DNA of 64,000 bases from assembly GCA_907165135.1 (NCBI GenBank), contig OU015569.1, forward strand, positions 11,904,001 to 11,968,000, in the 5' to 3' direction. The stretch is from Oikopleura dioica. Lineage: Eukaryota > Animalia > Chordata. Below, piece after piece: positions 4,109 to 37,986 of this stretch. The position numbers were made by a program, and so were the translations under genes. Within the stretch, counting starts at the first letter, position 1. Every line of letters starts with the position of its first letter. Under the pieces are notes generated by a model. That model saw only the letters and a list, made by a program, of their open reading frames with translations, made no database searches and was not told where the DNA came from.

Positions 4109-4708
4109 ATGAAGCTTGCCTCGATCTTCGCCGCTGTTCTTGGTTCAGCCAGCGCTCTTGACGAGCTCAAGATCGAAAAGACCCACGAAATCGCCGGTAA
4201 GTGATTGATACGCTTAATTTAATCGGGCAGACTACATTTATTCCAAAACGCAGGAACGGTACTAATTAAAATTCTCAGAAGCTGACTGCAAGCACAAGTC
4301 GCAGAAGGGAGACAAGCTCTCGATGCACTACACTGGCACTTTGATCGACGGAAAGAAGTTCGACTCCAGCCGGGACAGAAACCAACCCTTCCAGTTCACC
4401 CTCGGCGCTGGAATGGTCATCAAAGGATGGGACCAGGTACTTCGACTTCAATAACTTCAATTTTTTCTTCAAATTTTTTGCAATCCGCCCCAATTTTGCT
4501 TGACAATCTTGACTAGATCTTTTCCTTTTTGTTGAGCATTGATTTTCAGGGCCTTTTGGACATGTGCATCGGCGAAAAGCGAACACTGACGATCCCACCT
4601 CACTTGGGCTACGGCGACCGAGGAGCTGGAGGAGTCATCCCCGGCGGCGCCACCCTTCTCTTCGACGTCGAGCTGCTCAAAATCAAGCGAGGAAACGATG
4701 AACTCTAA
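4109..4708 (+). CDS. FKBP2: ER-luminal FKBP-type peptidyl-prolyl isomerase, 3 exons
   Basis: Signal peptide [16 protein letters not shown]; [23 protein letters not shown]|[32 protein letters not shown]; C-terminal NDEL-stop. Confidence 0.92.
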
Positions 4709-13869: not shown

Positions 13870-16800
13870 GAGAAAAAGCATGAAGAAAAAGAGAAAGAGA
13901 AAATCGACCTGTCCAAAGGAGAGACGACTAAAAAGGATGAAAAAGAAAAGAAAGAGCCGCTGAAGAAAGTTTCTTATTTCAAACTCGTAAGTTTCAAATT
14001 CAAAAAGAAAAGATCGTCGGATTGATTTTTTCCGAGAAATCTAAGATCGTTTTTGTTAGTACCGATTTGCCACGAAGACAGACTGGCTGTTGATTTCGCT
14101 GGGATGGTTTGCCGCGATTTTTGTTGGCGTTTCTCAGCCGGCGATGATTATTTTCTTTGGAAATGCACGGGATCATTTATTCTCAATTACAGTTTTTTTT
14201 TACTGTATATTTACTGATGCATTTTTTCAATCATATTACTTTCATTTTTATCTCGGCTTGGCAACCTGAGTAGAAAACCTGAGCCAGGCTCTGGAAGAGC
14301 TAAAATGAAAAGCCGCGTAGCGGCTTTTTTAAAACGAAGCCGCAGGAGTTTGAAGAACCTTTATGAGGTTCATTTGCGAAGCCGCTTTGCGGCTTCGGTT
14401 TTAAAAGCCGCTAGGCGGCTTTTCATTTTAGCTCTTTCAGAGCCTGACTCAGGTTTTCTACTCAGGTTGCCGAGCCCAGATTTTTATTGTTAGGAAAATT
14501 ATGGGTAAAAGTTCTTGACTTTCAAAATGCTGTTGGTTATAATTTCATAATTATCAATCACTAGAATAATAATAATGTAAGTTGCTAAGCGACTTTAGTA
14601 TCCGGTAGTAGACACTTTGTTCGAAAAGGTAACTCAATAAAGATGAATGAGCCCCTCTCTAGTCTGTAAATGACTTTACATCTGCTGGAAAGTTCCAGGC
14701 CTGCTTTCCTGGCGATTCCGAAGCATTGGCTGCTTTGGGAAATGGAACTGGCTCGCTGGACCAAGTTTCTGATTTCTGTAAATTGACGTTGGCGACTCTC
14801 AACGAGCGGGAAAAGGCGCTGTATACCGAAGGAGATGGAGCTGCGATTTCTGGAACGATGATGGACAATATTTGGTGGTTCATCGGACTCGGCGCAGTCG
14901 TCTGGCTCGCTGGGTGGATCCAGACCGCGTGTCTTATGTACTCCTCGGATCGACAAGTCAACCAGCTCAGGAATGGAGATAACGAGCGTCAGCTTAGAAT
15001 TCGACGTGTCACAATGATTTTGAAAAGAAAATAACTCAAGCGAGCTTTAGATTTAGATTCGACCACCCAAATCAAAAAATAGCTGATCTTTCATTAATTC
15101 TTCCATGTGTATTTAACGTAATGATACCCTTAATTTATTACATGAAAAGATAGCCATGAAATATATTTTCGAAAATCTCCATAAAAGAGCGACTTACTTT
15201 GCCTCGGTAGTGCGCCAAAACATCGGATATTTCGACACCCACGACACTGGCGAGTTAAACACGCGTATGTTCGACGATGTGAAGAAAATACAAGATGGAA
15301 TCGCTGAAAAAGTCGGCATTGCTATTCAGTCACTCGCGCAGTTCATCGGAGGCATCATCATTGCCCTTGTTTACGGCTGGAAGCTCGGGCTTGTTTGCGT
15401 CGCTCTTTTGCCTGTGATCGGCATTTCCGGCTTTTTGTTCTTTTACATGACGACTTCCGCTTCAAAAGCAGAACTCGACGATTACGCCGAAGCTGGCGGC
15501 ATCGCGGAGGAAGTTCTTGGCGCGATTCGCACCGTCACTGCTTTCGGCGGACAAGCTTTCGAAAACAAGCGTTATTACAGCCCACTTTTGCGCGCCCAAT
15601 TTTCCGGAATCAAAAAGTCAGCGCTGGCTGGATTCGCCATTGGTTTCTTCTTCCTCGCCATGTTTTGCGTTTATGCTCTTGCCTTCTGGTACGGGGCGGA
15701 GCTGGTCATTACTGACGGCTACGATGTTGGGCGAAAGCTCATAGTGTTCTTCGGCGCGATTATTGGGGGCTTTGGACTCTCCCAAATGGGCCAAAACTTG
15801 GAGTACTTGGGCACAGCGCAGGCAGCAGCCTACAGCGTCTTCGAAATCATTGACCGAGTTCCAGAAATTGACGTTTACTCTACAAAAGGAAAGAAGCTCG
15901 CCGATGTGAAAGGAACCATCACCTTCAAAGACGTCAAGTTCACTTATCCGTCCCGACCCGAGCAAGAAATTCTGAAGGGCGTAAGCTTCACGGCCGAGGC
16001 TTCTCAGACAACCGCTCTGTGTGGCGCTTCTGGGTGTGGCAAGTCGACATGCTTCCAACTCATTCAACGGTTTTACGACGCCATAGATGGTCAGGCAATG
16101 AGTTTATTACACTAACCGAGGTTCGAGAAAATTCGAACTTTTTACGGCCTGCAATTCATCTTTCTTTCGGCAGATTTATTGAAAACCTGAGTCAGCATCT
16201 AAAAGAGTTCAAATGAAAAGCCGCAAAGTGGCTTTTTTTGAAGACAAAGCCGCAAAGCGGCTTCGCCAGGAGCTAAAAATAGACTGATATCGTGATGATT
16301 GGAAGCCGCTTTGCGGCTTTTCTCAAAACCTGACTCAGGGTTGCCGACCAGAGACTCCTATCTCTTCACTTGTTTGTTGTTTGTCTAAACTCTGACAGGT
16401 TCTAATTGACGGACATGATATAAAAGACTTGAATCTCGCCTGGTTCCGTGAAAATGTCGGAGTCGTCAGTCAGGAGCCGATTTTATTTGACGGCTCTGTG
16501 GAAGAAAACATTCGACTAGGACGACTCGATGTGACGAAGGACGAAATCATCACAGCGTGCAAGCAAGCCAATGCTTACGACTTTATCCAAAAGCTTCCGG
16601 CAGTTTGGGAGACCAACGTCGGCGAAGGAGGCGCCACTCTTTCGGGAGGGCAAAAGCAGCGAATCGCCATCGCCAGAGCTCTTGTTCGAAATCCGCGAAT
16701 TCTTTTGCTCGACGAAGCCACTTCCGCGCTCGACACTGAGTCGGAAAAGATTGTTCAACAGGCGCTAGAAACTGCCTCGCTCGGAAGAACAACACTTGTC

Positions 16801-19800
16801 ATTGCACACAGGTAAATAAATATTCCAATTCACTTGAAAATAAAAAATTTAGATTGTCGACGATCAAAAAAGCGGACAAAATCATCGGTTTCAAAAATGG
16901 CGAAAAAGTGGAAGAAGGAAACAACGAATCGTTGCTCCAAATCGAAGATGGAGTTTACAAGACACTCTCGAATATGCAAACCTATGTTGATGAAGACAAC
17001 GAAGACGGAAAGACGGAAAAGGAGGAATCACTCAAAACCGTTTCCAAAGATGATGTGATTACGGAAGTAAGCAAGAAGGGAGCTGAAGGACCGGATTTTT
17101 GACAGCAATTTTTGTTTTCGTATCAAAAATATTGATTTTTTTGTTAATAGAATTGGTCTTCTATGTTGTCAAAAACCGAGAAAAAGAGAAATCAGCTTCG
17201 AAAATCGACGAAAAGAAAAAGAAAGAAGAAACAAATGAAGATATTGCGGAGCGAGAAGGACTTCCCGAAGTGAGCTGGGGCCAAATCATGAAAATGAACA
17301 GTCCCGAGTGGCCTTTCATCGTTGTTGGAGCCATTTTTGTCAGAGTTTTTCACTATTTTTTATGACTTTAGAAATCTATTGCCACTTCTGTTTTGAAAGC
17401 CAATTATTTATTGAAAAAAACTGACATTGAAAAACTCACGGGCAGCGGTTTCAACTGGCGCGATCCAGCCGATTTGGGCAATTGTCTTCGCAAATGTACT
17501 TGAAAACTACTCCGAGTTCAATTGCGCCTACAATCAAGACATCAGCGCATTGAGCGGGAATCAGACTTTGAACTTTGGCCTCGGTGATTTCACCGTAGAC
17601 GTGGACGCCTTGAAAGCAGATGAGAAAGGGTGCAGATTGGATGGATTCAGAGACGAGATTCGCTTCTGGGCTGGAATGTTTGCTGTTCTAGGAGTCGGGC
17701 AGTTCATCGGCTACGGCTTTCTCAACTGGATGTTCGGCTTTTCTGGCGAATACATGACCACGAGGCTCCGAGCGCAGTCGTTCGCCAAACTCCTCAGACT
17801 AGATATGGGCTATTTTGACGAGCCACTGAACTCGACAGGTAAAAACAATCGTTGTTGATTTCCTCAAAAGATTGACACTGATTTATTTCAGGTGCGCTTA
17901 CCGCGAGATTAGCTTCGGACGCCGGCAAAGTTCAAGGAAAGTATTCACTTCACTCTTCAGTATCCATGGTTTTTTTTATTAAATAATCAAACAAATTAAT
18001 GAATACGGATGAAAAGGTGCAACGGGCCGACGAGTGAGTCAAATGTTCATCAATATCGGCGCCCTTGGATGTGGTCTCGGAGTGGCCTTCTATTATGAAT
18101 GGCGACTTTGTCTCCTCACCTTTGCTTTTCTGCCGTTCATGATTGTTACTCAGGCGTTGATGATGAAACTGATGACGGGCAACTTTGGTGGAAACGAACA
18201 ACTCGCGATCGAAACCGCCAGCAAAGTAAATCGCTAACAATCAAAGCCATTTTACAAAAAAAAACTGTAGGTAGCGACAGAAGCAACAACAAACATCCGA
18301 ACAGTCGCAGGACTCGGCCGAGAAGCCCATTTCGGCAAAATCTACAAAGAAAACATCGACGCTACTTTCCAAGGAAAAGGCAAGAAGATCAACATTTATG
18401 GAATCCTCTACGGCGCCAGTTTGGGAGTGATGTTCTTCATGTACGCCGGTCTCTTCCGCTTCTCGATGTTTTTGATCGACGAGGGAATCATCGATATTTC
18501 GAGAACTTCGGACATCTTCAGAGTCTTGTTCGCGCTTGTTTTCGCCGCTTTCACTGCAGGATCGGGTCCAGAAAAGACAAGACTTGACAATTTAAATTCA
18601 ATAATTTCTGATTCCAGCATCCATTCCAAAAATAGTTTTGCGACTCTTGAACAGGCCAATCCGCTGGAATGGCACCAGATTACGGTCAAGCAGTGTTAGC
18701 AGCTCGCCGTGTCGTTAAACTTCTCGAATACCCGCTCTTGATTGACCCCGAATCTACCAAAGGCCAAAAGCCTCAAATCACCGGCAAGGTGGAATTCTCC
18801 TCCGTCGAGTTTTCCTACCCAACTCGCAAAGACGTACTCGTGCTAAAAGGACTCAAGACCATCGTCGAGCCAGGCCAAACACTCGCGCTCGTGGGCCAAT
18901 CTGGCTGTGGAAAATCCACATGCATTTCGCTCCTCGAAAGATTTTACAACGCATCGGCTGGTGAGGTCAAAATCGACGGTGTCGACATTACTGACATTAA
19001 CTTGAAATGGCTGCGTTCCAATGTCGGACTTGTCCAACAAGAACCTGTGCTTTTTGCCAAACCGGTTTTTCATTTCTGTGATTTTGAGAAGGCACTTTAG
19101 GGTGGGCTCGGCAACCTGTGCAGAAAACCTGAGTCAGGGTCTAAAAGATCTCTAGACAAAAGCCGAGTAGCGGCTTTTTAATAAACGAAACAGAATTCAA
19201 AAAATGAGTGAAATAATTTAACAAGATAATTTGGCGAAGCCGCTTTGCGGCTTCGTTTTCAAAAGCCGCGTAGCGGCTTCTTATTACAGATCTTTCAGAC
19301 CCTGACTCAAGTTTTCTATACAGGTCGCCGAGCTCAGGCCCTTATAAAGTGAAATTCTCCGTTGATTTCTATGAAAAACCATGAAAAGACACGACAATTA
19401 CCAACAACATCTTGTACGGACTAGATGACGAAATTTCTTCTGGAGATCGAAAATCGAACAAAGTCGGAGTTGAACAATTCTCAAGAGAAGACATCGAAGC
19501 GGCGCTGAAAGAAGCAAATGCGTATGACTTTGTTATGGAGCTTCCGCAGGGGCTAGAAACCCGCTGCGGCAAGAAGGGATCGCAACTGAGTGGAGGACAG
19601 AAGCAGAGAATCGCCATCGCCAGGGCGTTAATTCGAAAGCCAAAGATTCTGTTGCTGGACGAGGCGACAAGCGCCCTCGATACCGAAAGCGAAAAGGTAC
19701 AAATTGGCTTTTCTGGGAACAAAATTTGAAAATCTGTTTAGATCGTGCAAGATGCGCTTGACAAGGCGCGGCAAGGGCGGACTGCGATTCTGATCGCGCA

Positions 19801-26919: not shown

Positions 26920-27281
26920 ATTAAACCTATTATTTAATTTCTTATGACCCTAAAAGGTGCCTTTTCAATCAATTCTAAAACCAAAAAAAGAATACTTTTC
27001 GTTTTTAAAAAATACTCTCATTATTTACTACTGTACATTTCGTCACTTTTCCAGTTCCAGTGTTCCAGAATGATCCTTGACACCAATTGAAACACGACAC
27101 AAAAAACAAAACAAGCTCATTTAAAAGTCTCTTTATTCCGCAGAAAGTAAGGATAAGCAGGAGCATTTTAATGTATTTATATTTTCTAAGGGGTCCTTGT
27201 TGATTTTTATTTTTATGTAAAGATACCCCTTGTTTGTGTTTTTTTAGTTAATTATTATTCTATCGTCAGGTCCCTTTAATC

Positions 27282-27725
27282 AAAAGAGACTAATTTTAAT
27301 CAGAAGAGACTAAAAGAGACTTTAAAAAGAGATTTTAAAAAGAGACTAAAGAGAGACTAAAAGAGACTAAAAAGAGACTAAAAGAGACTAAAAGAGACTT
27401 TAAAAGAGACTTTAAAAAGAGATTTTAAAAAGAGACTAAAGAGAGACTAAAAGAGACTAAAAAGAGACTAAAAGAGACTAAAAGAGACTAAAAAGAGACT
27501 AAAAGAGACTAAAAGAGACTTTTAAAAGAGACTAATTTTAATCAGAAGAGACTAAAAGAGACTTTAAAAGAGATTTTAAAAGAGACTAAAGAGAGACTAA
27601 AAGAGACTAAAAAGAGACTAAAAGAGACTAAAAAGAGACTAAAAGAGACTAAAAGAGACTAAAAAGAGACTAAAAGAGACTGAAAAGAGACTTTTAAAAG
27701 AGACTAATTTTAATCAAAAGAGACT
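27282..27725. repeat. Tandem (AAAAGAGACT)n minisatellite with higher-order structure
   Basis: Roughly 40 copies of a 10-11 bp A(4-5)GAGACT unit; the spacer taattttaatc recurs at 27291, 27533 and 27703. Confidence 0.95.
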
Positions 27726-28076
27726 AATCAAATCAAAATAGACCCGGAAGAGACGTCAAACTAGGGCCTCTTCTGGGTAAAGAAAAGACCAAAAAGAGAC
27801 TTTTACAGTAAATAAATTCGATGAAATATTTTTCCACTAGCTGTTGTCTGAAAGATAGTACGAGTGCTTTTGCTGCTGCTTGATTAGACATCTTTAGAGC
27901 TCAAGTGGTTTAATTCCTGCTTTTTGGCGCAGATTGCCGGATTCTGAAGAGCGGAATTAAACCACTGCCCTTGATTGGGTTCTGTTGAGAATGAGCGTGT
28001 CAGTCGAAACTGACAGGGAGCGCTTCTTTTGCTTCTGGGGCGGAGACCCTTCTTCTAAGGATAATTTTTGATAAGG

Positions 28077-31000
28077 TCACGTGATCACCTGCTAATTAAA
28101 TTAAATACCGCCAAGCGAGTGATCGGCGCTGGCACCACCCAGAATATCAAAGCCTTGGCCATGCGCAGCACCAGCGTCGCGAAGAAATCAATTATTCCGC
28201 AAAGAGTCGCTAAGAAAAAGGTTAATTGATCCAGAAAAAGAGAGCGAAGAGATACCTAAGCTCATTCCAGCAATGAGCCCCGCCGTGCCGCCAATATCGG
28301 AAACCAGCGAGAGCAGCGGATAGTCGAGCTTCTCTTCGCGGCGAGTTTCGTAGTCGTCGTTGAGCGAAATCGCGAAACTGGCCAGATCCAAGTTGACGAT
28401 TTCGTGGTTGTTTTTTTGAACTGGAAAAAGAAAGAAATAAATTAATTTTGGACCGCGGTTGACCGCAATTTAATAATACCGCGGGGACCGGCCATCTGGC
28501 CGGTTTTTTTTACTTCTAAAAGAAAAGTTTTGTGGAAACTACAATTTTTACCTCTTGTTAGTTTTCGAAAATCGTGTTGATGAATCCCTTCATATTGGAT
28601 CTAAATTGATTTGTTAGCACTGTCCAATTAAACAATTAGACTCTTTTGATGTAGCAAACCTTGTAGTTGTAGGAGAGGACACCCTTACAAGAGGGAATAC
28701 ATCTGCACTTGTTCTTTTGATTGACCATAATCGCTGAAAGAATTGATTCGTGGGCATTTCCGAAATCAGCTTACATGAAACGCACTGGACATGTCTCGTA
28801 AACGGACAATATCCTTCTTCGTCCAGCTTTCGAATTTTCTCGCAATCTTCGCGGGCCACGACGAAGTTCTTGTCGCACTGGTAGGTGAATTTGAACCACG
28901 GGAGGCTGCAATTGCAGCTTTCCATGATCTGCTTCACCAAGCATTTTTCCATGCAGTTGTTGTACGAATACTGGAACTCCTCCGTGTCTGCTGGGTTCGT
29001 TTCGCCACAGCTTTCGTCCACTTGTTCTTCCAGCGACGCGTTTTTCCAGCAACAAGGGGAGCGAACTCCACCCACTCGGCTGGTGTTCAGTTGGTTCAAT
29101 TCGATGATTGGATTCATTCCTTTCACGACCTTGAAATCAAAATGATGCTTACCTCGGCAACCTGAGAAGAAAATCTGAGTCAGGCTCTGGAAGAGCTAAA
29201 ATGAAAAGCCGCGTAGCGGCTTTTTTAAAAACGAAGCCGCGAAGCGGCTTCGCAAATAAACCATTTATATTTTCTTTAAACTCTTGGCGAAGCCGCTTTG
29301 CGGCTTCGTTTCTAAAAAAGCCGCTACGCGGCTTTTCATTTTAGCTCTTCCAAAGCCTGACTCAGGTTTTCAACACCTTAATAGGTTTGCCTACCTTAAC
29401 GTTATCAGTAAGACTGGGGCTTGGATTAGGGTTGGACGAGTTAGCATCGATGAAAAGCGTGAGATCGTCACGAGAATGCGCCCATCCAAGGACGAAATCG
29501 CTCTGGTTGAAGGCAATTGTCACGGAGAGCTGATTCTTTCCCGTGTTTTCGTCCGACCAGGTCAGATTTGGCGGCTTGAAGTGATAGCAGTATCCAAGGC
29601 GGGTGAAGATAAGCGACCAGGCTAGAATTTCGAAGTCGAGTAATTCTAAAAATTATAAAAAAAGGCGTACATTCCCATTCTCTCCCGTTTTGGCGCATCA
29701 GCTCTTCCCAATGCTGGCATTTGCGATTTCTATACGTGCACGTGATTCTTTAACTGAGGCTTCATACTTATAAATATGACCGTTTTTCTATGATAAGAGG
29801 ACTCTAAAATCCCTTGACGTTGAAGCCCTAAATGTAATACTCTGGCGGCGTTTTTTCATAAAGCTTGGTCATATTTATCTCGTCGATTTTCTTCGAAAAC
29901 ATTTTGCTTTTATGATAAGCCTTCTTTGGCCGGATTTTATGTACGTGTTTATCAAAGTACATAAATTGGGTTTGTTGAGACTGGTTTATTTGTATTCGGG
30001 AGCAGGATACAAAAAGAGTAAAGTTAGTTTTGTTGGTAGTGAAGTTTTGTGTGTGTGTGTGTGAACAGAGAAATGTTTCTTATATAGTGTTTTGTAAGAC
30101 GTGGTAGAGTGTTCTATGGTGGGTGGTCAGATATTCCGTGAAGTGTGGCTGAGCCGTTTGAGGAATGTGGCTTGAGCTTTCACGGAGCGCGGCGGGCGCT
30201 TTCACGGCGCGTGGAATAGAGCTTCGCGGACAGTGAATGAGAATGGCGCGCAGCGCGGAGCAAATGTGCATTGATAAACACCACTACATATTCCTCCCTC
30301 TTTTATAAAAGATCGTTACTCGCAGGGGGGTTTCCTGAGTTTATAAGCTGATCAATGATGTTTTGTCCATACGAGGTAACTGTATCAAAGTTGGGAACGT
30401 CGACGAACTCCATTTGTTGATCGGATTGAGGAGCATTCTCATTCTGGTTATCGACGAACTGTTCTTCTTGTTGAGGTTGAGCAGTGTTTTCCAAGAGACC
30501 GAGGAATTCCAAAAGATCAGTGAGGATAAGGTAAACTTGTGAAGCAATAAGTTGTATCTCACTGCTCTGTTTACAATTGAGCTCCTTCCAGCAGCCACGT
30601 TTTTTAGCAAATTTTGCCTCATATGTATCCAAGATTTTCTTGCGAGTTTCTTTTGAAGCTGATTTCGCTGTATAGAGCAAGCACTTGCACGAATAGAGGA
30701 GCAAGGATTTTAGGTCAGCGCTGGTTACTTCAAGATCAAGTGGCTTTTGTTGGAGTATTTCGAACCAGTCCTCGCGCTCTTGGATCGAAAATTCAACTTT
30801 TTCAAGCAAATTTCGGATGATTTTCGTTTTCTCGCATTCGATTTCGTAGAGCGGGATTCGGATGCCAATAACATAATTTAATGCAAATTGTTGAAAACGT
30901 CTTTTTGTGTCACTCGTTTTTTGAAGTAGAAAGATATCGCTAGTGAGTGTGGTCGGCATGCTGGGAGTATCTCTTTTATCATGAAGAATTCGATTTCAAT

Positions 31001-34000
31001 TTGGTGAGATGTTTTTTCTCTTTTCGAGTTCTGAATAGAGTCACATTCTGATTGAGCAGTTTGGAACACATGCTTCGAACGGTACATGCTAATTTTATCG
31101 GCGGATGAGTATCGGGGAGCTGTTTTGAATAGCTTTCTTTTGTCCAGGCGCGGAGATTTACGAGCATTGCAGCGCGCTGAGATTTCTTCTTTTTTGAATG
31201 AGTCCTTCTATCGATTTGGATTCTCGATTCTGATTTCGAGCTTTAGATTTTTCAGAAAGTCGAGTGAACTGAGAAGTTGACTATTTTTGAACAAACGAGC
31301 AGTTTTCATTCGTCTCTTCCCCCTTTTCAGAAAAAGGAGATTCGCATTATGCCATTTGAGCTGGGAAAATGCCTCTTTGGTCGAACATTCGAATATTTGT
31401 GAATCGGCAACTGCACACATTGCCAACATCTGGAGAAATCCGGCGCAAGGTTAAGAGTAGCGGTCCAAGTAGAGGGGCCCAGTTACTTGTACATAATCAA
31501 TTTTATGCGGTCGGAAGTCCACAGAGGCCTGATTTAACTTCAGCAGCGATTGAGCGGAACTGGACTCTTTTCTAGTGTGCATCATATCGTTGAAGTTGTG
31601 AAATTCATTTTGAGCGGCGATATATCTTTTGAGAGCAGGGCTTTAATACTCATGTATTCGAATTAATTTGAGCTTGGTAAAACGTGATGAGCTTCTCTTT
31701 TTACTTATTGTGTCTTGAGCGGAGACGATCTTTCCATACTGAATCCTTGTTTTCACTTTCATTGAGCAGTAGTTGATCATTCGCTGTAGAAGTGGGAGCA
31801 TCAGAGCAAGGATTTTGATCTTGAACTGTATCATCGGTCGGAGCAGATCGATTTTGCTGAGCTTGTTTAAGAGCTGGGACTTGAGTTTGTTTTGGATCAG
31901 GAACAGGAGCTTGAATTGGAGCACTTTTTTCTTTTGAGCTGGAATTATTTGGATTTTCATCCTTGCAAATCATTTCCGTTTTGTCGTTATCAGTTTTTAT
32001 TTTGAGCGGTCTGATCAAACTGATATTTCTTCGATATTCTTTTCTTGTGAGCGGGCACTTGACAATGTAACTGTCTTTGGAGAGTCTTCTGTGGATCTTG
32101 AACGGTCCAGACCATGATATTCCGAGTTTTCCAGAGTAATTGTCTGGTTTCCAACAAAGAACGGATGTTCCAATCGGGAGCACGGGACAGTTGTTTTTGT
32201 CACGTTTTAATAATGACTGGTATCGTTGGACTTGGAAGTTGAGCAGAGCAGGGTGCAATTTTTTCAAATACGAATTTAACCCTTTAATGAATGGCTGGAT
32301 ATTTTCAGCGATCGGCTCTTTTAGCGAAAATGGAACATGAAATTGTCTTCCATACACAACTTCGTTACTTGACAAACCGTCCAGGGAGCCTTTTGGGGTG
32401 TTGTTCAGGAAGTATTGTACCAGTGGCCAGTAGTTTGACCAAGTGCGATTAGTAGCGAGTTGGTTCTTGAGCTTTTGGTGAATTTCTCGATGGATTCTTT
32501 CGCACTTTCCATTTGACTTACTGTAATAAGCACTTGTAGTACTACGGCGTATTTCAAATCGGTCAAGAATGGCTGTTGTCTTTGAGCCAAATTCTTTACC
32601 ATTGTCGGAAATACAATTTTCGGAGATTCCGTGCCTCAGTATTATTTGCAAGAGAGCTTTAGCAACGAGGTTGTCGGACTTGTTCGATAGTGGTTCTCCA
32701 TCAAGGTAGCCGCTAAGGCTGTCGACGACGGTGAGCAAATAACGTTTACCAGCTTGGTCGGGTCTACCAAAATCCACTATGTCTGTGTGGACCTTTTCAA
32801 AGGGGAGTTGAGCGAATTGGCGATCTTTTATCAGCGAAGGTCGCATTTGTTTGATCGGTTTTAGGCGAATGCATGTTTCACATGAGCTTGTGATTGCCCT
32901 TACTTTTTGTTGGATGTTGCTGATGAAAAATTTCTTGAGCATCTGAAGGAGCTGTTGACTTCCGGCATGAGCTGTCAAGGAGTGTAGGTAAGAGATAAAT
33001 TCATCGGCAATTTGACTGGGTAGAACAAGTCGATCATTCGAGTAGAGAACATTATCTTTCAGCATAAGGCGTTTCTGAGACTTGTTGATCTTGGCTTTTT
33101 GAATAAGGTTTTTCGTAATGGAGCAGGCTTCTTGAGCAGCAGTCATTTCTTTCGCCGTAAAGGATCGATTTTCGTATGAGAAGATAGCATCGTCATTCGA
33201 AAGAGTTGACAAGGCGAAGATTGTTTCATCAACGTCGAAGAAGTTTTCTGAGTCCTTATCAAGATCAGAACTCTTTGATTTAGGGAGCCGGCTAAAGAAA
33301 TCTGCAGAGGCCATTTCCGGACTTGATCCGCTTTTGTGAATAATCGTGAAGTTAAAAGCGAGCAGATAATTATGCACATTGCATAATTTGATGTCCAGTT
33401 TCTGTCTTCGTGATTCTCGGAATAAATAGAGCAGTGACTTATGGTCGACATAACAGTCGAACTCGCAATTGATCAGGTAGTACTCGAAAAATTGGATTCC
33501 CCAGCAGAGAGCGAAAAGTTCCTTGATCCTCATTGGTCGCTTGAGGTCGGGACCGGAAAGAGCTTTGCTGAAGTATCCAAGGGGAGCGAATTGATCGTTT
33601 TGGACTTGATACAGTGTTCCTCCGACTGCGTATCCAGATGAATCAGTAACAAGAACGAGTTTACATCCGGGCTTGAAGTGCGCTAGGGTCGGCTCTTTCA
33701 GGAGTTCACTTTTTACTGTATCAAAAGCCTTCTGATGGATGTCGGACCACTCGTATTTCGCTTTGACTGATGTCAAACGATAGAGCGGGGACAGAATCTC
33801 ACTTCCGCGTTTGATGAATTTGACGTTGAAATTGACCATACCAAGATATCGTTTCAGTTCTGCTTTATCTCTTGGTGGTGACATCTTCTCTATAGCTTCT
33901 AGGTGCTTTCTGAGCGGTTTGATTCCGTCTGCGGTTATTGAGTGACCAAGAAAGTCTAGTTGTTTGCTGGCAAGTTGGCATTTCGCAGCATTTAGTACCA

Positions 34001-37000
34001 ATCCGTGCTCAAAACAGGTTTGAAACACATATTCCAGAGCTTTCAGATGGCTTTCCCAATTATTGTCAATCACTATCAAATCGTCCAAATAGAGCAGAAT
34101 AGAATCATGTTTCATCAGCTTGTTCATAATTCGAGAGAAACAGGCTGGAGCATTGCATGATCCATAGAGCATTCTATTGGTTTGGTAATGGCGTCCATCG
34201 TAACTGAAGGCCATTTTGTGGGCATCAGCTTCATGAATAAAGACGGCCCAGTAGCCTCTCAAGAAGTCTACTGAACTGATAAAACATTCTTTTCCGGAGA
34301 GCTTCTTTCCGATGGAGGTGAATACACTTTGCATGCTTGGCAATGGGAAGCGATCTTTTTGGAGTAGTTCATTTAGCATTCGCGCATCAAGAGAAATTCT
34401 GATTGAGGAATCACTCTTTCGTAATATAATGAGCGGTATGTTGAATGCCGATTGTGTTTCTTGGATGACATTGAGCTTTTTCCAATTAGTCATTTGATCA
34501 TCAACTTGCGGTTGAAGATGAATCGCAATTTTTCGGGGCGGCTGATGAGCAGATTTTGTTTCATCATAAAGTGGGAGCGAGTATCGGAAACCAAAAAGTC
34601 TTCCGAGATCATTTGAGTCCATGTTGAAGGAGAGTCGCCATTTGTAAGTTAAATCTCCGAGCTGTTTCTTTTGTTTTGGATTTGCAGCGCCATAAGATCC
34701 AATGGCGGGAACGAAGTTGATTTTTTGAGCTTTTTCTGATCGTTGTTTTACGAATTCATCGTACTCTTCTCTTTCACGACCAGTTTCTTTATCAATTTCA
34801 ATTAAGCCGGTTAAGAACAAGTCAGGTGAGCTTGGGTCGATTGTTGGGATAGATTTATTCTTCAAGATAACTGATTTTTCTCCAATTGTTATTCCTTTAA
34901 GAGCATCCATTCCCAAAATGATCGGGCAAGATAGGTTACGAACAATGAGCGGGTCCAACTTCAATTTAAGTGGCGAGGAGCTTGTTTCGAACTGAACATC
35001 AATAGGGGTTCTGAGCGTTTTGACTTTTACAACTTCTGAATTTGCGCACTTGAGCATTATTGAAGATGGGATTTGTTGATTGATTGTTGACGGTAAAACA
35101 TCGAGAACATCAGAGCGGAAACAGGTTCGACTTGCACCACTATCAATAAGGCAAGGGAACTTGAATCCGTTGAGCAAAATTTGTACAAATTTGAGCGAGG
35201 CCGGTGCAAAATGAGCGTATTCGCACGTTTCGATGACTTTTGATAGTCATGCCCCTTCCTTTATAATTTTAAGGATGTCTTCAGGGACTTCTTCCGCATG
35301 GAGATATTTGCACTTTTCGCCAAATCGACAGCGGCGATTACGAACATAGGCAATGCAGTGTCCCTGAATCTTGTCAGTTGGAATTCTCGATCGTGGTTTT
35401 CGTTTCTTCTCCTTTGAAGGTTCTTTGGCAGAAGCGATCATTTCTTTGAGCTGGGAGCAGAGCTGCGCCATTTCAGATTCTTTTCCACTATTTGAGCATT
35501 CAGCAGTGAAGACATTTTCTCGTTTGTAGAAACTTCGTTCTAGTTCCATAGCACGGTTAGCGATATTTCGGAGATTGAGCAGGGATTTTTCTCGTCGCAG
35601 TAATTCGGCAAGTCGAGGATCCTGGCATTCGATGAATCGATCGCAAATGATTGACTCGTCTGCTGCATCGAGCACGAGTTTTCCATAACCCTTTTTGAAA
35701 TATGCTTGGAGCTTCGTAACGGCCATTTGTTGGGTTTCCTGGCCTCGTTGAAACGATGTGTAGAGATGTTTGAAGTGTTCCTTGTCTTTGCCAAGAACTT
35801 GCACTAATTTCGTTTTAAAGCTTTCCCAGTTCTTCTTTTCTTCTTCGGTAATGGCTTCAATCAAGGAGGTTCCACTTTCTTCCATCAGAATTTGAGACAA
35901 GGCGACGCTGATCAGATCCGCGTCGGTGATCTTTGAACATTTACCGTAAAGTTCCATGTTGACGATCCAGTTTTCTACAGGGAGCTGGGAGTCGAATTTG
36001 GGAGTCTTCATTTTTACTTGTCCAAATTTTGGTTGATCGGGCGATGATTCTTTTTGCTGTTGATTAGGTTCCTTTTGAGGAGCATTTCTAGGATCGTTTC
36101 TAGGAGCAGATCCAGATGGCTTGGAATCAGGAGGTGGTGGTCGGAACTTCGGTTCTACCTTTTCAGACTCATCAATTCGAGCGAGAATTGAGTTCAGGTT
36201 ATCCATTTCAATAATTTCATTTATTTTATCGATATCAATTTTATGATCTGCACGAGCTGTCTTTTGAACAGCTTCTTGGATATTATTCACATCGAAATCT
36301 GGGTCAAATTCAATTCTTTGGTCTACCTTTCGGAAAAAATATTTTCTATCTAATTGGTCGAACAAGTCTGGCTGAATATTGAGCAAATTCAGGACACACC
36401 CTGACTTGTCAAATCGGGGAATAGGGAGCGGGTATTTCTTATCCGGGTGCTTGTCATAAATAAGCATAAGCTCTTTAGCAGTCAGATCAACTACCAATTT
36501 ATAATAAAGTTCTCCCATGATATCAAAACTTTAGCCTATTGGGTAACCTGTACTTACGTGAGTCTGTTCTTGGGAGCGGCGCTCTGCAGAAGGTCAGGAT
36601 AAAATCGCTTTTTTTGATTCTTTCTTCTGGTTCTTTCTTCTGGTTCTTTCTTCTGGTTCTAGCTGGGTTTTGTTGTGGGCGTTCCGTTTTCTTCAGTCAC
36701 CAAAATATGTACGTGTTTATCAAAGTACATAAATTGGGTTTGTTGAGACTGGTTTATTTGTATTCGGGAGCAGGATACAAAAAGAGTAAAGTTAGTTTTG
36801 TTGGTAGTGAAGTTTTGTGTGTGTGTGTGTGAACAGAGAAATGTTTCTTATATAGTGTTTTGTAAGACGTGGTAGAGTGTTCTATGGTGGGTGGTCAGAT
36901 ATTCCGTGAAGTGTGGCTGAGCCGTTTGAGGAATGTGGCTTGAGCTTTCACGGAGCGCGGCGGGCGCTTTCACGGCGCGTGGAATAGAGCTTCGCGGACA

Positions 37001-37986
37001 GTGAATGAGAATGGCGCGCAGCGCGGAGCAAATGTGCATTGATAAACACCACTACATTTATTATCGATAATTTTTTCGGCAACTTTGGACAGGATTTATT
37101 TAGACCGGTTCCTGGAATCCTTTTACTTCGCTTTCTAGGATGTAGCCGTAGCCGTAAAATGCCCACATTACTTGACTCAAGTCGAAATCACTTACCAGGG
37201 ATCTTATAATTAGAATTTGATCTTAGATTAAATAAAAGTTAAGGTTAGGGTTAGTCGAATATTTAGCCGAAAAGACCAAATTTTAGTCTAAAAATAGTCT
37301 TAAATTTGGACTAAACCAAAATATGGAAGTGCATTTTTGATTAACCAATAAGATTTCTGTATTTAGCCTACCGACCAATCAAAACCCTGATCCTCAAAAT
37401 CACTTCTATTTTTTGCTTCTGCCCCAAATTTAAACATTTAGACTTGTCGCGACGCTTAGTAAGAACCCTTGTTCACTTATCAACGACGCAAGTAGCTGTT
37501 TCGAATGCATGCTGTTTAGACAGAGCGTAATCTCCGGAAAGATGATTTCTGCGTCGATGACATTTTGCGACTGGTAGAGCGTTTGCCCGAGCGCGTACTT
37601 AAAAGTTTCAAAAACAATAATTACTTTTACTCGTTTCTTTTTTTTTTACTTGAGTGTAGTCGACGTTGAGAATCAGCAAAGTGTAGAAAACGCCGATGAT
37701 AACGACAGAGCTCCAAAAAATCAGGCGAGGAAGAGGAATCCGCTCTTTCAAGAGAATCATCGAGCCTTGAGGACCGACATGGGCGAAAACGTTGGAGCTC
37801 CATTTTTGCACCCATTTTGGGGGCTTCAGAGATATTCCTCGGCACATTTTCTCTTTTCGAGTTTTTTGACTGATTATTGAAAATTAAAATGAAGAAGATT
37901 TCGATTCCAAAATTCGAAGTCAATAATTTGTGGCCATTTATGGATTTGAGATGACATAAGTAGCAATCAATATTCTGAAAAGGCAT
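28077..37986 (-). CDS. DEG/ENaC (ASIC-like) sodium channel, split by an intronic LTR retrotransposon
   Basis: TM1 region FAHVGPQG..RLIFWSSVVIIGVFYTLLIL (about 37650-37800); FPEITLCLNSMHS (about 37500); Cys-rich CMEKCLVKQIMESCNCSLPW (about 28900); pre-TM2/TM2 EEKLDYPLLSLVSDIGGTAGLIAGMS (about 28260-28340). Start and stop are approximate. Confidence 0.85.
29153..29376. mobile_element. MITE family A, long copy A6 (ENaC intron)
   Basis: ctcggcaacctgagaagaaaatctgagtcaggctctggaagagctaaaatgaaaagccgcgtagcggc..., nearly identical to A3; right end cctgactcaggttttcaacac. Confidence 0.88.
29940..30288 (-). repeat. 3' LTR
   Basis: Direct repeat of 36708-37056; TATATAA and AATAAA on the minus strand; (CA)n tract. 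Confidence 0.97.
30291..30304 (-). other. Polypurine tract
   Basis: AAAAGAGGGAGGAA just upstream of the 3' LTR. Confidence 0.85.
30303..30959 (-). CDS. Retrotransposon accessory ORF C, 218 aa, helical, no signal peptide or clear TM
   Basis: ATG-initiated ORF in the env position; its stop overlaps the PPT; preceded by actcccag|c-ATG. Confidence 0.7.
   Translation of the reverse strand: MPTTLTSDIFLLQKTSDTKRRFQQFALNYVIGIRIPLYEIECEKTKIIRNLLEKVEFSIQEREDWFEILQQKPLDLEVTSADLKSLLLYSCKCLLYTAKSASKETRKKILDTYEAKFAKKRGCWKELNCKQSSEIQLIASQVYLILTDLLEFLGLLENTAQPQQEEQFVDNQNENAPQSDQQMEFVDVPNFDTVTSYGQNIIDQLINSGNPPASNDLL
30979..31167 (-). CDS. Retrotransposon accessory ORF B, 62 aa, basic
   Basis: ATG-initiated; tiles between ORF A and ORF C with 40-nt and 19-nt gaps. 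Confidence 0.4.
   Translation of the reverse strand: MLVNLRAWTKESYSKQLPDTHPPIKLACTVRSMCSKLLNQNVTLFRTRKEKKHLTKLKSNSS
31208..31429 (-). CDS. Retrotransposon accessory ORF A, 73 aa, basic
   Basis: ATG directly follows a strong acceptor ttaac...gatttctccag|ATG. Confidence 0.5.
   Translation of the reverse strand: MLAMCAVADSQIFECSTKEAFSQLKWHNANLLFLKRGKRRMKTARLFKNSQLLSSLDFLKNLKLEIRIENPNR
31701..35246 (-). CDS. pol: Pol polyprotein (protease, RT, RNase H, integrase), in frame with gag
   Basis: PR LIDSGAS; RT LYLDDLIV; RH VTDSS..IKELFA..VDHKSL..ADFFSR; IN HSLTAH..CETC, VHTDIVD, SDNGKEF, KCERIHRE; WSGPFKI; no stop between the gag UGA and the protease. Confidence 0.95.
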   Translation of the reverse strand, partial: LSKVIETCEYAHFAPASLKFVQILLNGFKFPCLIDSGASRTCFRSDVLDVLPSTINQQIPSSIMLKCANSEVVKVKTLRTPIDVQFETSSSPLKLKLDPLIVRNLSCPIILGMDALKGITIGEKSVILKNKSIPTIDPSSPDLFLTGLIEIDKETGREREEYDEFVKQRSEKAQKINFVPAIGSYGAANPKQKKQLGDLTYKWRLSFNMDSNDLGRLFGFRYSLPLYDETKSAHQPPRKIAIHLQPQVDDQMTNWKKLNVIQETQSAFNIPLIILRKSDSSIRISLDARMLNELLQKDRFPLPSMQSVFTSIGKKLSGKECFISSVDFLRGYWAVFIHEADAHKMAFSYDGRHYQTNRMLYGSCNAPACFSRIMNKLMKHDSILLYLDDLIVIDNNWESHLKALEYVFQTCFEHGLVLNAAKCQLASKQLDFLGHSITADGIKPLRKHLEAIEKMSPPRDKAELKRYLGMVNFNVKFIKRGSEILSPLYRLTSVKAKYEWSDIHQKAFDTVKSELLKEPTLAHFKPGCKLVLVTDSSGYAVGGTLYQVQNDQFAPLGYFSKALSGPDLKRPMRIKELFALCWGIQFFEYYLINCEFDCYVDHKSLLYLFRESRRQKLDIKLCNVHNYLLAFNFTIIHKSGSSPEMASADFFSRLPKSKSSDLDKDSENFFDVDETIFALSTLSNDDAIFSYENRSFTAKEMTAAQEACSITKNLIQKAKINKSQKRLMLKDNVLYSNDRLVLPSQIADEFISYLHSLTAHAGSQQLLQMLKKFFISNIQQKVRAITSSCETCIRLKPIKQMRPSLIKDRQFAQLPFEKVHTDIVDFGRPDQAGKRYLLTVVDSLSGYLDGEPLSNKSDNLVAKALLQIILRHGISENCISDNGKEFGSKTTAILDRFEIRRSTTSAYYSKSNGKCERIHREIHQKLKNQLATNRTWSNYWPLVQYFLNNTPKGSLDGLSSNEVVYGRQFHVPFSLKEPIAENIQPFIKGLNSYLKKLHPALLNFQVQRYQSLLKRDKNNCPVLPIGTSVLCWKPDNYSGKLGISWSGPFKIHRRLSKDSYIVKCPLTRKEYRRNISLIRPLKIKTDNDKTEMICKDENPNNSSSKEKSAPIQAPVPDPKQTQVPALKQAQQNRSAPTDDTVQDQNPCSDAPTSTANDQLLLNESENKDSVWKDRLRSRHNK
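35247..36518 (-). CDS. gag: Gag with C-terminal CCCH zinc finger
   Basis: 423-aa ORF after the PBS; Pro/Gln linker; capsid-like KTPKFDSQLPVENW..KKNWESFKTKL; C-x8-C-x5-C-x3-H at 35298-35357. Confidence 0.9.
   Translation of the reverse strand: MGELYYKLVVDLTAKELMLIYDKHPDKKYPLPIPRFDKSGCVLNLLNIQPDLFDQLDRKYFFRKVDQRIEFDPDFDVNNIQEAVQKTARADHKIDIDKINEIIEMDNLNSILARIDESEKVEPKFRPPPPDSKPSGSAPRNDPRNAPQKEPNQQQKESSPDQPKFGQVKMKTPKFDSQLPVENWIVNMELYGKCSKITDADLISVALSQILMEESGTSLIEAITEEEKKNWESFKTKLVQVLGKDKEHFKHLYTSFQRGQETQQMAVTKLQAYFKKGYGKLVLDAADESIICDRFIECQDPRLAELLRREKSLLNLRNIANRAMELERSFYKRENVFTAECSNSGKESEMAQLCSQLKEMIASAKEPSKEKKRKPRSRIPTDKIQGHCIAYVRNRRCRFGEKCKYLHAEEVPEDILKIIKEGA
36691..36702 (-). other. Primer-binding site (tRNA not assigned)
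   Basis: TGGTGACTGAAG, 5 nt downstream of the 5' LTR. Confidence 0.6.
36708..37056 (-). repeat. 5' LTR
   Basis: Direct repeat of 29940-30288; TATATAA at 36848-54 and AATAAA at 36753-58 (minus strand). Confidence 0.97.

Follow-up and report, generated by a model that had tools for sequence, protein, structure and literature searches.

A conserved gene with a predicted Bcl-2-like fold in the env slot of an Oikopleura dioica Ty3/gypsy retrotransposon

What occupies the env slot, between pol and the polypurine tract (PPT), in a long terminal repeat (LTR) retrotransposon of the larvacean Oikopleura dioica? The question is raised by a Ty3/gypsy element that lies on the minus strand at 37056-29940 of a 64,000-nucleotide stretch of DNA (assembly GCA_907165135.1, contig OU015569.1, positions 11,904,001 to 11,968,000 of the forward strand), referred to in what follows as the window. 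A preliminary description of this DNA had placed in the slot an accessory cassette of three open reading frames (ORFs A, B and C), none of them Env and expressed, by inference, from a single splice donor in the leader or by trans-splicing. The explanation that we find best overall, and to which we would give about an even chance of being right as a whole, is that the slot holds one conserved non-Env gene, ORF C, that its product is Bcl-2-like and its mRNA spliced, and that ORFs A and B are not separate genes. Coordinates are collected in Table 1.

Judged from its relatives, ORF C is a real, conserved gene that belongs to a protein family. Three protein searches returned seven clusters of relatives with identities of 27-43% (P0001, P0011, P0012, P0013, P0014, P0026 and P0027), including P0001, which has 10 members and is 28% identical over 99% of ORF C (E 3e-12), and P0013, which has 12 members and no usable match in Atlas. 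The relatives have in common a core of ~155 residues, beyond which a long acidic tail varies, and across the 10 rows of the alignment a KRRFQQ block, Y113, R121, W124 and L127 are among the near-invariant positions. Near the C-terminus the sequence PPGY is found in 6/6 relatives checked, and 2 family members match DUF5099 (E 0.005). Related loci were found neither in viral contigs nor in prokaryote genomes, and in the metagenome search for them 1 of 17 pattern matches was confirmed.

One relative comes with its surrounding DNA, a metagenome contig, L001, on which the order is integrase end, 581-nt spacer, ORF C relative, PPT, LTR, primer-binding site (PBS) and gag. The L001 ORF C is 37% identical over residues 1-129 and the L001 Gag is 36% identical; because the two proteins are similarly diverged it is likely that ORF C has travelled with the element, although it must be set against this argument that DNA context is known for just 1/7 relative clusters. 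On the contig a single LTR (2402-2930) joins the 3' end of an element to a PBS and gag, as would be seen either in a tandem array or after the collapse of a circular assembly, and the integrase frame is broken near 470.

The relatives also bear on whether the slot might hold an env gene or what is left of one. They are full length (220-412 amino acids) and have no transmembrane (TM) segment; ORF C itself reaches a borderline peak hydropathy of 1.62 that is not shared by six relatives (0.70-1.51), no N-x-S/T glycosylation site occurs in ORF C, and its AlphaFold models are all-helical and soluble. ORF C as an Env or a truncated Env was rejected on the grounds that there is no conserved TM helix and no N-glycosylation site and that the relatives are full length, so that the refutation proposed in the preliminary description, namely that ORF C might prove to be a truncated Env, is not borne out, and its assertion that an accessory gene other than env occupies the slot stands. 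The further statement that none of the three ORFs has a clear TM stretch is correct for A and B, with best 19-residue hydropathies of 0.49 and 0.55, and has to be qualified for C on account of the borderline value. A FAST-type fusogen was considered as well and rejected on hydropathy and the full-length relatives; neither A nor B starts with Met-Gly.

In order to ask what kind of protein ORF C might encode we have used AlphaFold models of the window ORF C (predicted template-modelling score, pTM, 0.54) and of the L001 core (pTM 0.74), which show the same helix pattern, and a structure search, independent of Foldseek, over 48,161 PDB chains. With the window model Bcl-2-fold chains occupy ranks 1-18 and 31/50 rows (best Z 5.6, root-mean-square deviation (rmsd) 6.3, 139 residues aligned), the best unrelated chain having Z 4.4, and with the L001 model they fill 19 of the top 20 places and 28/50 rows (best Z 6.6, rmsd 4.8, 114 aligned), the best unrelated chain having Z 5.3. 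A second look with the window model gave BAX (5w62) at Z 6.9, rmsd 4.6 and 134 aligned residues, and Bcl-2 is the top-ranked family in all four structure searches, with Z 5.6-6.9 and rmsd 4-6 Å. Two aromatic residues, F117 and W124, are conserved in 7/7 rows and form a pair that might or might not correspond to the aromatic pair that Bcl-2 homology region 2 (BH2) has before the last helix. On balance, the models suggest for ORF C a helical bundle of Bcl-2 type to which a further helix is added at the C-terminus.

A good deal weighs against this assignment. No structural match reaches Z 8 and the rmsd values are those given above, in a setting where the search tool itself cautions that helical bundles often attain such Z values from helix arrangement alone; moreover, most of the alignment is common to the two models, which are thus not independent. 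Foldseek returned no match at E 0.001 or better, its weak rows being rich in BAX, CED-9, Mcl-1, vaccinia A52 and A49 and viral Bcl-2 proteins. No Bcl-2 family was found in Pfam (0/7 and 0/16 members), and profile searches of the PDB gave chance rows only, with no Bcl-2 among them. The canonical BH1 motif, NWGR, is by eye absent from the family alignment. Profile and structure searches of the kind that the preliminary description had suggested for ORF C gave no Bcl-2 match at the level of sequence and, in the search of PDB chains, the Bcl-2 fold in first place, below Z 8.

The same results could be taken to mean that ORF C is a real gene with an unrelated, new helical fold, its resemblance to Bcl-2 being one of common helix arrangement. 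The best Z and rmsd values are within the range for models without a clear match, and both the lack of any sequence-level match and the absence of a canonical BH1 speak for such a fold. However, one family fills the top ranks in two wide searches, with alignments that cover nearly the whole Bcl-2 domain (~110-135 residues), and viral Bcl-2-fold proteins without sequence similarity are known (PMC4358236). We consider a new fold rather unlikely.

What might an element do with a Bcl-2-like protein? O. dioica is reported to be without Bcl-2 genes, and tunicates without an obvious Apaf-1 (PMC8998228); because the host is reported to lack Bcl-2 genes a classical anti-apoptotic role is unlikely. Vaccinia A49, by comparison, has a Bcl-2 fold, binds no BH3 peptide and captures an E3 ligase by way of a disordered motif (PMC4358236). 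By analogy ORF C might be a soluble protein-binding scaffold that is used by the element against host defence, and not a regulator of mitochondrial apoptosis, a suggestion that we ourselves find somewhat doubtful. The disordered tail, with its PPxY-type motif in most relatives, would in that case recruit a WW-domain (NEDD4-type) ubiquitin ligase, such motifs being recruiters of ligases of this class. Here, too, there is contrary evidence, as the window copy ends in PPAS and P0024 has PPGW; because the PPAS tail has no tyrosine the ligase-recruiting step would not apply to the window copy. Put together, we tentatively propose, at somewhat short of an even chance, that a larvacean LTR retrotransposon lineage carries, instead of env, a stand-alone, deeply diverged Bcl-2-fold protein with a ligase-recruiting tail, serving to manipulate the host in the manner of poxvirus proteins, with ORFs A and D maybe expressed from upstream tandem acceptors.

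A more conventional role can also be read into the models, in which ORF C would be a Bcl-2 of viral type that blocks apoptosis, binding BH3 helices and letting cells that express the element survive. The top matches do include the BH3-binding tanapoxvirus, A179L, CNP058 and KSHV Bcl-2 proteins, and BCL2-like and BIR motifs are known from the Burro elements of planarians (PMC6431247). Yet the host is, as reported, without Bcl-2 partners (PMC8998228). In addition, neither a conserved membrane anchor nor a canonical BH1 is present, and the last helix of the window model is matched to the C-terminal region of BAX, as far as residue 189. This region of BAX fills the groove. An anti-apoptotic function of this kind would be very improbable.

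As to how ORF C is expressed, an acceptor-like YAG lies within 3 nt of its ATG in 2/2 elements for which there is DNA, at 1 nt in the window and 3 nt in L001. The base rate of a YAG no more than 3 nt before an ATG is 7-10% (6/92 in gag-pol and 154/1640 in the window), and against this rate the YAG near the ORF C ATG in both elements favours a spliced mRNA; from the sequence it is plausible that ORF C is expressed through the acceptor that adjoins its ATG. The transcript would begin in the 5' LTR, and splicing would join the leader donor at 36557 to the YAG 1 nt before the ATG, a route that we favour slightly. The env of Tor3a, an O. dioica element, is spliced likewise, from non-canonical GA donors near the gag start (PMC4402516). 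The GTAAGT motif of the donor occurs 29 times in 128 kb, counting both strands, which corresponds to a roughly 1-in-20 chance for a leader of this length, and a second copy is found in pol at 32521. Counting against the splice route is the result that L001 has no canonical GTRAG donor between the LTR TATA box and the first gag codons. Four RNA runs labelled with the same species (X8, X10, X11 and X12, with 4-59% of each read) gave 21 placed reads, none of them 99% alike, with no reads on the spacer, ORF C or the host flanks and no joints, and are uninformative on expression.

There is a second route by which ORF C might be made, with a promoter inside the spacer, as for Tor4b env, and with or without spliced leader (SL) trans-splicing at the YAG; the spacer would then be maintained for its promoter, and the short ORFs would be by-products. 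Env of Tor3b and Tor4b is expressed from an internal promoter, and Tor4b elements always have a pol-env space that contains the env start site (PMC4402516); in L001, for its part, a canonical leader donor is absent, yet the YAG is kept, as is a second PPT-like run of the spacer. Against this, a perfect donor is found at the usual position in the window copy, whose spacer contains neither a TATA box nor TCTAGA, and a promoter leaves the stop-poor frame of the spacer, described below, unexplained. We regard an internal promoter as less likely than not; it concerns expression only and is compatible with a Bcl-2-like fold. Leader splicing and internal promoters have each been published before for env of Tor elements (PMC4402516), and the expression signature as such is not new.

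Turning to ORFs A and B, the coordinates and sizes reported earlier for A, B and C are present in the sequence, as are the 40-nt (A-B) and 19-nt (B-C) gaps, the acceptor-like AGs of A (31431-30, 0 nt from the ATG), B (31178-77, 9 nt) and C (30962-61, 1 nt), each upstream of its ATG, and the leader GTAAGT 39 nt before the gag ATG. The picture of three non-overlapping ATG ORFs was nevertheless selective, as ORF D, which overlaps B and C, and a 44-amino-acid ORF had been omitted. The AGs likewise exist, but they are ordinary by pyrimidine content, including the one called textbook: among the 123 YAG sites of the element that of A has 7/10 pyrimidines (29/123 equal or better) and that of C 6/10 (52/123), while the weak acceptor of B, with 4/10, is below the median. 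Codon scores, for which the reference is pol (in-frame +0.12 +/- 0.07, off-frames -0.13 +/- 0.09), are +0.099 for C (-0.194 and -0.036 in its other frames), +0.039 for D, an ambiguous -0.004 for A and -0.148 for B, on a scale rough enough that the L001 ORF C itself reaches only +0.028; because its score falls with the pol off-frames, ORF B resembles an off-frame.

Comparison with other copies points in the same direction. Neither A nor B has a detectable counterpart in the L001 spacer (shuffle p 0.17 and 0.73, with low power for frames of 60-70 amino acids), Pfam gave no match to any of ORFs A-D or to the spacer segments, and none of the four ORFs was found by exact look-up in the protein collection. 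The preliminary description had named frameshifts in related copies as evidence that would count against it, and these are in part seen: a 1-nt insertion at 31308, inside ORF A, is present in related copies in 4/4 DNA runs (depth 409/779, 71/200, 53/393 and 6/10), and gap letters number 8, 29 and 1 in three contig pieces spanning A and B. It is thus likely that A and B are not separate conserved genes and that B is an off-frame shadow. Some results are at odds with this conclusion. The insertion in A was observed among 12 of 107 indel rows, so that compensating indels in A may exist among the others. Two non-overlapping ATG ORFs of at least 60 amino acids arise in 67/3000 dinucleotide shuffles of the 741-nt spacer and, when a YAG no more than 9 nt from both ATGs is required, in 3/3000, counts that favour the earlier view and are to be read with the proviso that the thresholds were picked after the data were seen.

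The spacer is not random in its stop content. The frame that contains the 44-amino-acid ORF, A and D (30878-31642) has 3 stops, whereas the other two have 12 and 11 (P=0.005, 3000 shuffles), in segments of 63, 80 and 109 codons with a pol-like codon-position bias, and the L001 spacer (886-1466) has a similar stop-poor frame whose phase relative to ORF C is the same (P 0.047). Between these two stop-poor frames no significant sequence similarity was found (p 0.15-0.77). The frame is most likely a fast-changing or decaying remnant of a further gene; translation of A is conceivable, that of D unlikely and that of B improbable. The second PPT-like run of the spacer may prime plus strands or may mark a former 3' end that predates the gain of ORF C.

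These data can be put to the original proposal that the slot holds three accessory genes, A, B and C, for each of which a separate acceptor is used, either with the leader donor or in SL trans-splicing. In its support are the shuffle counts and the non-random stop content, the fact that short ORFs may diverge past recognition at the distance of L001, and the base A that follows the acceptor of ORF A, as is usual after O. dioica trans-splice acceptors (PMC6389100). It has to contend, however, with the lack of a detectable A or B counterpart and of a canonical leader donor in L001, with the off-frame-like codon score and weak acceptor of B, with the insertion inside A in all four DNA runs, and with ORF D, which shares the acceptor-ATG spacing of C and conflicts with B. 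A cassette of three genes on one donor is not upheld by these results, and we rate three separate genes as quite improbable, preferring a slot with the single conserved gene ORF C.

The element itself is intact and recently inserted. Between the LTRs it has gag followed by protease, reverse transcriptase, RNase H and integrase, together with a PBS and a PPT, and it is flanked on both sides by a 4-bp target duplication, TAAA; a contig from another DNA run, X6, joins across 29940-37089 and so spans the empty site, from which it follows that the insertion is polymorphic. Pfam matches in pol are RVT_1, RT_RNaseH, rve and Integrase_H2C2, and a protease motif is seen in the open frame. Gag and pol are in one frame, split by UGA then CUA at 35244-35249 and in the same way in L001 at 4285-4290. 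This context favours stop-codon readthrough, and the UGA is, by its sequence context, likely a readthrough stop.

Table 1. Features of the element, in window coordinates
Feature	Position	Strand	Remarks
5' LTR	36708..37056	-	349 bp, TG...CA; TATA box at 36854, AATAAA at 36758; identical to 3' LTR
Primer-binding-site-like sequence	36691..36702	-	TGG start; 5 nt past LTR end; first 11 nt same in L001; candidate PBS
Candidate splice donor GTAAGT	36552..36557	-	In leader, 39 nt ahead of gag ATG
gag	35247..36518	-	423 amino acids, C-terminal CCCH finger; ends UGA-CUA in frame with pol; 36% identity to L001 Gag
pol	31701..35246	-	Protease, reverse transcriptase, RNase H, integrase; uninterrupted
pol-ORF C spacer	30960..31700	-	741 nt; one stop-poor, coding-like frame
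44-amino-acid ATG ORF	31585-31451	-	Upstream of ORF A
ORF A	31208..31429	-	73 amino acids, basic; YAG directly before ATG; no Pfam match; status uncertain
Second PPT-like purine run	31313..31328	-	Inside ORF A; like run in L001 spacer at 888-901
ORF B	30979..31167	-	62 amino acids; likely chance frame; purine-rich acceptor
ORF D	30878..31087	-	69 amino acids, ATG; frame of A; overlaps B and start of C; YAG 1 nt before ATG; no Pfam match
ORF C	30303..30959	-	218 amino acids; helical core ~residues 1-155, then acidic low-confidence tail
Polypurine tract	30289..30304	-	ORF C stop runs into PPT
3' LTR	29940..30288	-	349 bp

Several observations were made in passing. In the leader a 13-nt purine-rich unit is present in 3 copies (36609-36657), and related subfamilies differ in sequence at 36520-36681. 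The element lies inside a host DEG/ENaC sodium-channel gene (28100-37850, minus strand; Pfam ASC, E 8.5e-05, one exon) in the same orientation, and because of this its donor and acceptors could disturb host splicing. Short palindromic repeats of one family, resembling miniature inverted-repeat transposable elements, are found at 14250-14481, 19103-19337, 29153-29374 and other places, and a tandem array of a ~10-nt unit at 27269-27727. Rfam and tRNA scans gave no matches.

No means of dealing with the host has been described for env-less Tor elements, and a conserved gene in the env slot is a concrete, small and expressible candidate for transposon-encoded counter-defence in a chordate. If the predicted fold is true, a retrotransposon has taken up the Bcl-2 scaffold in the form of a gene that stands by itself, in a host that is reported to be without a Bcl-2 pathway; that it is kept in such a host would point to a non-apoptotic target, in parallel to poxviruses, and ORF C would possibly be the last Bcl-2 fold in an animal that lost the whole family. 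A stand-alone Bcl-2-like gene replacing env in a Tor-type element was not found in the literature searched, which did not cover Volff 2004, Denoeud 2010 or the Henriet supplement, any of which may describe one.

How does this arrangement compare with known systems? The closest by layout are the Tor elements, which share with ours the order gag-pol-third ORF, near-identical LTRs, a 4-5 bp target duplication and polymorphic insertions, and in which the third ORF is spliced from a donor near the gag start (Tor3a) or expressed from a pol-env internal promoter (Tor4b) (PMC4402516). They differ in that the third ORF of Tor is a membrane glycoprotein, Env, whereas here it is a soluble, helical protein of 218 amino acids; in the excerpts of that paper env-less Tor elements are mentioned and no other third gene is described (PMC4402516). 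The planarian Burro/GYPSM1 elements are also gypsy-type and have a BCL2-like module, but there the motif is inside a polyprotein of 4,900-5,100 amino acids, beside Env, in a host group with Bcl-2 genes of its own (PMC6431247), while ORF C stands alone in place of env and has no sequence-level Bcl-2 signal. Vaccinia A49 comes third or fourth in each of the wide searches (Z 5.2-5.8, rmsd 4.0); ORF C is like it in predicted fold without being similar in sequence, and A49 too combines a folded domain with a short, disordered motif that captures an E3 ligase (PMC4358236). The match is a weak one, and the A49 motif is N-terminal and binds beta-TrCP, in contrast to the C-terminal, PPxY-like motif of ORF C (PMC4358236). 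Finally, env-less elements of the MDG1 group and other insect elements have short accessory ORFs, sORF2 or FAST-like, sometimes downstream of pol; these have a TM helix and usually a myristoylation start (PMC11952523), unlike A, B and C, which have neither, there being no Met-Gly. Accessory ORFs in lieu of env are thus of an already known kind, to which ORF C adds a stand-alone gene whose predicted likeness to Bcl-2 is invisible at the level of sequence.

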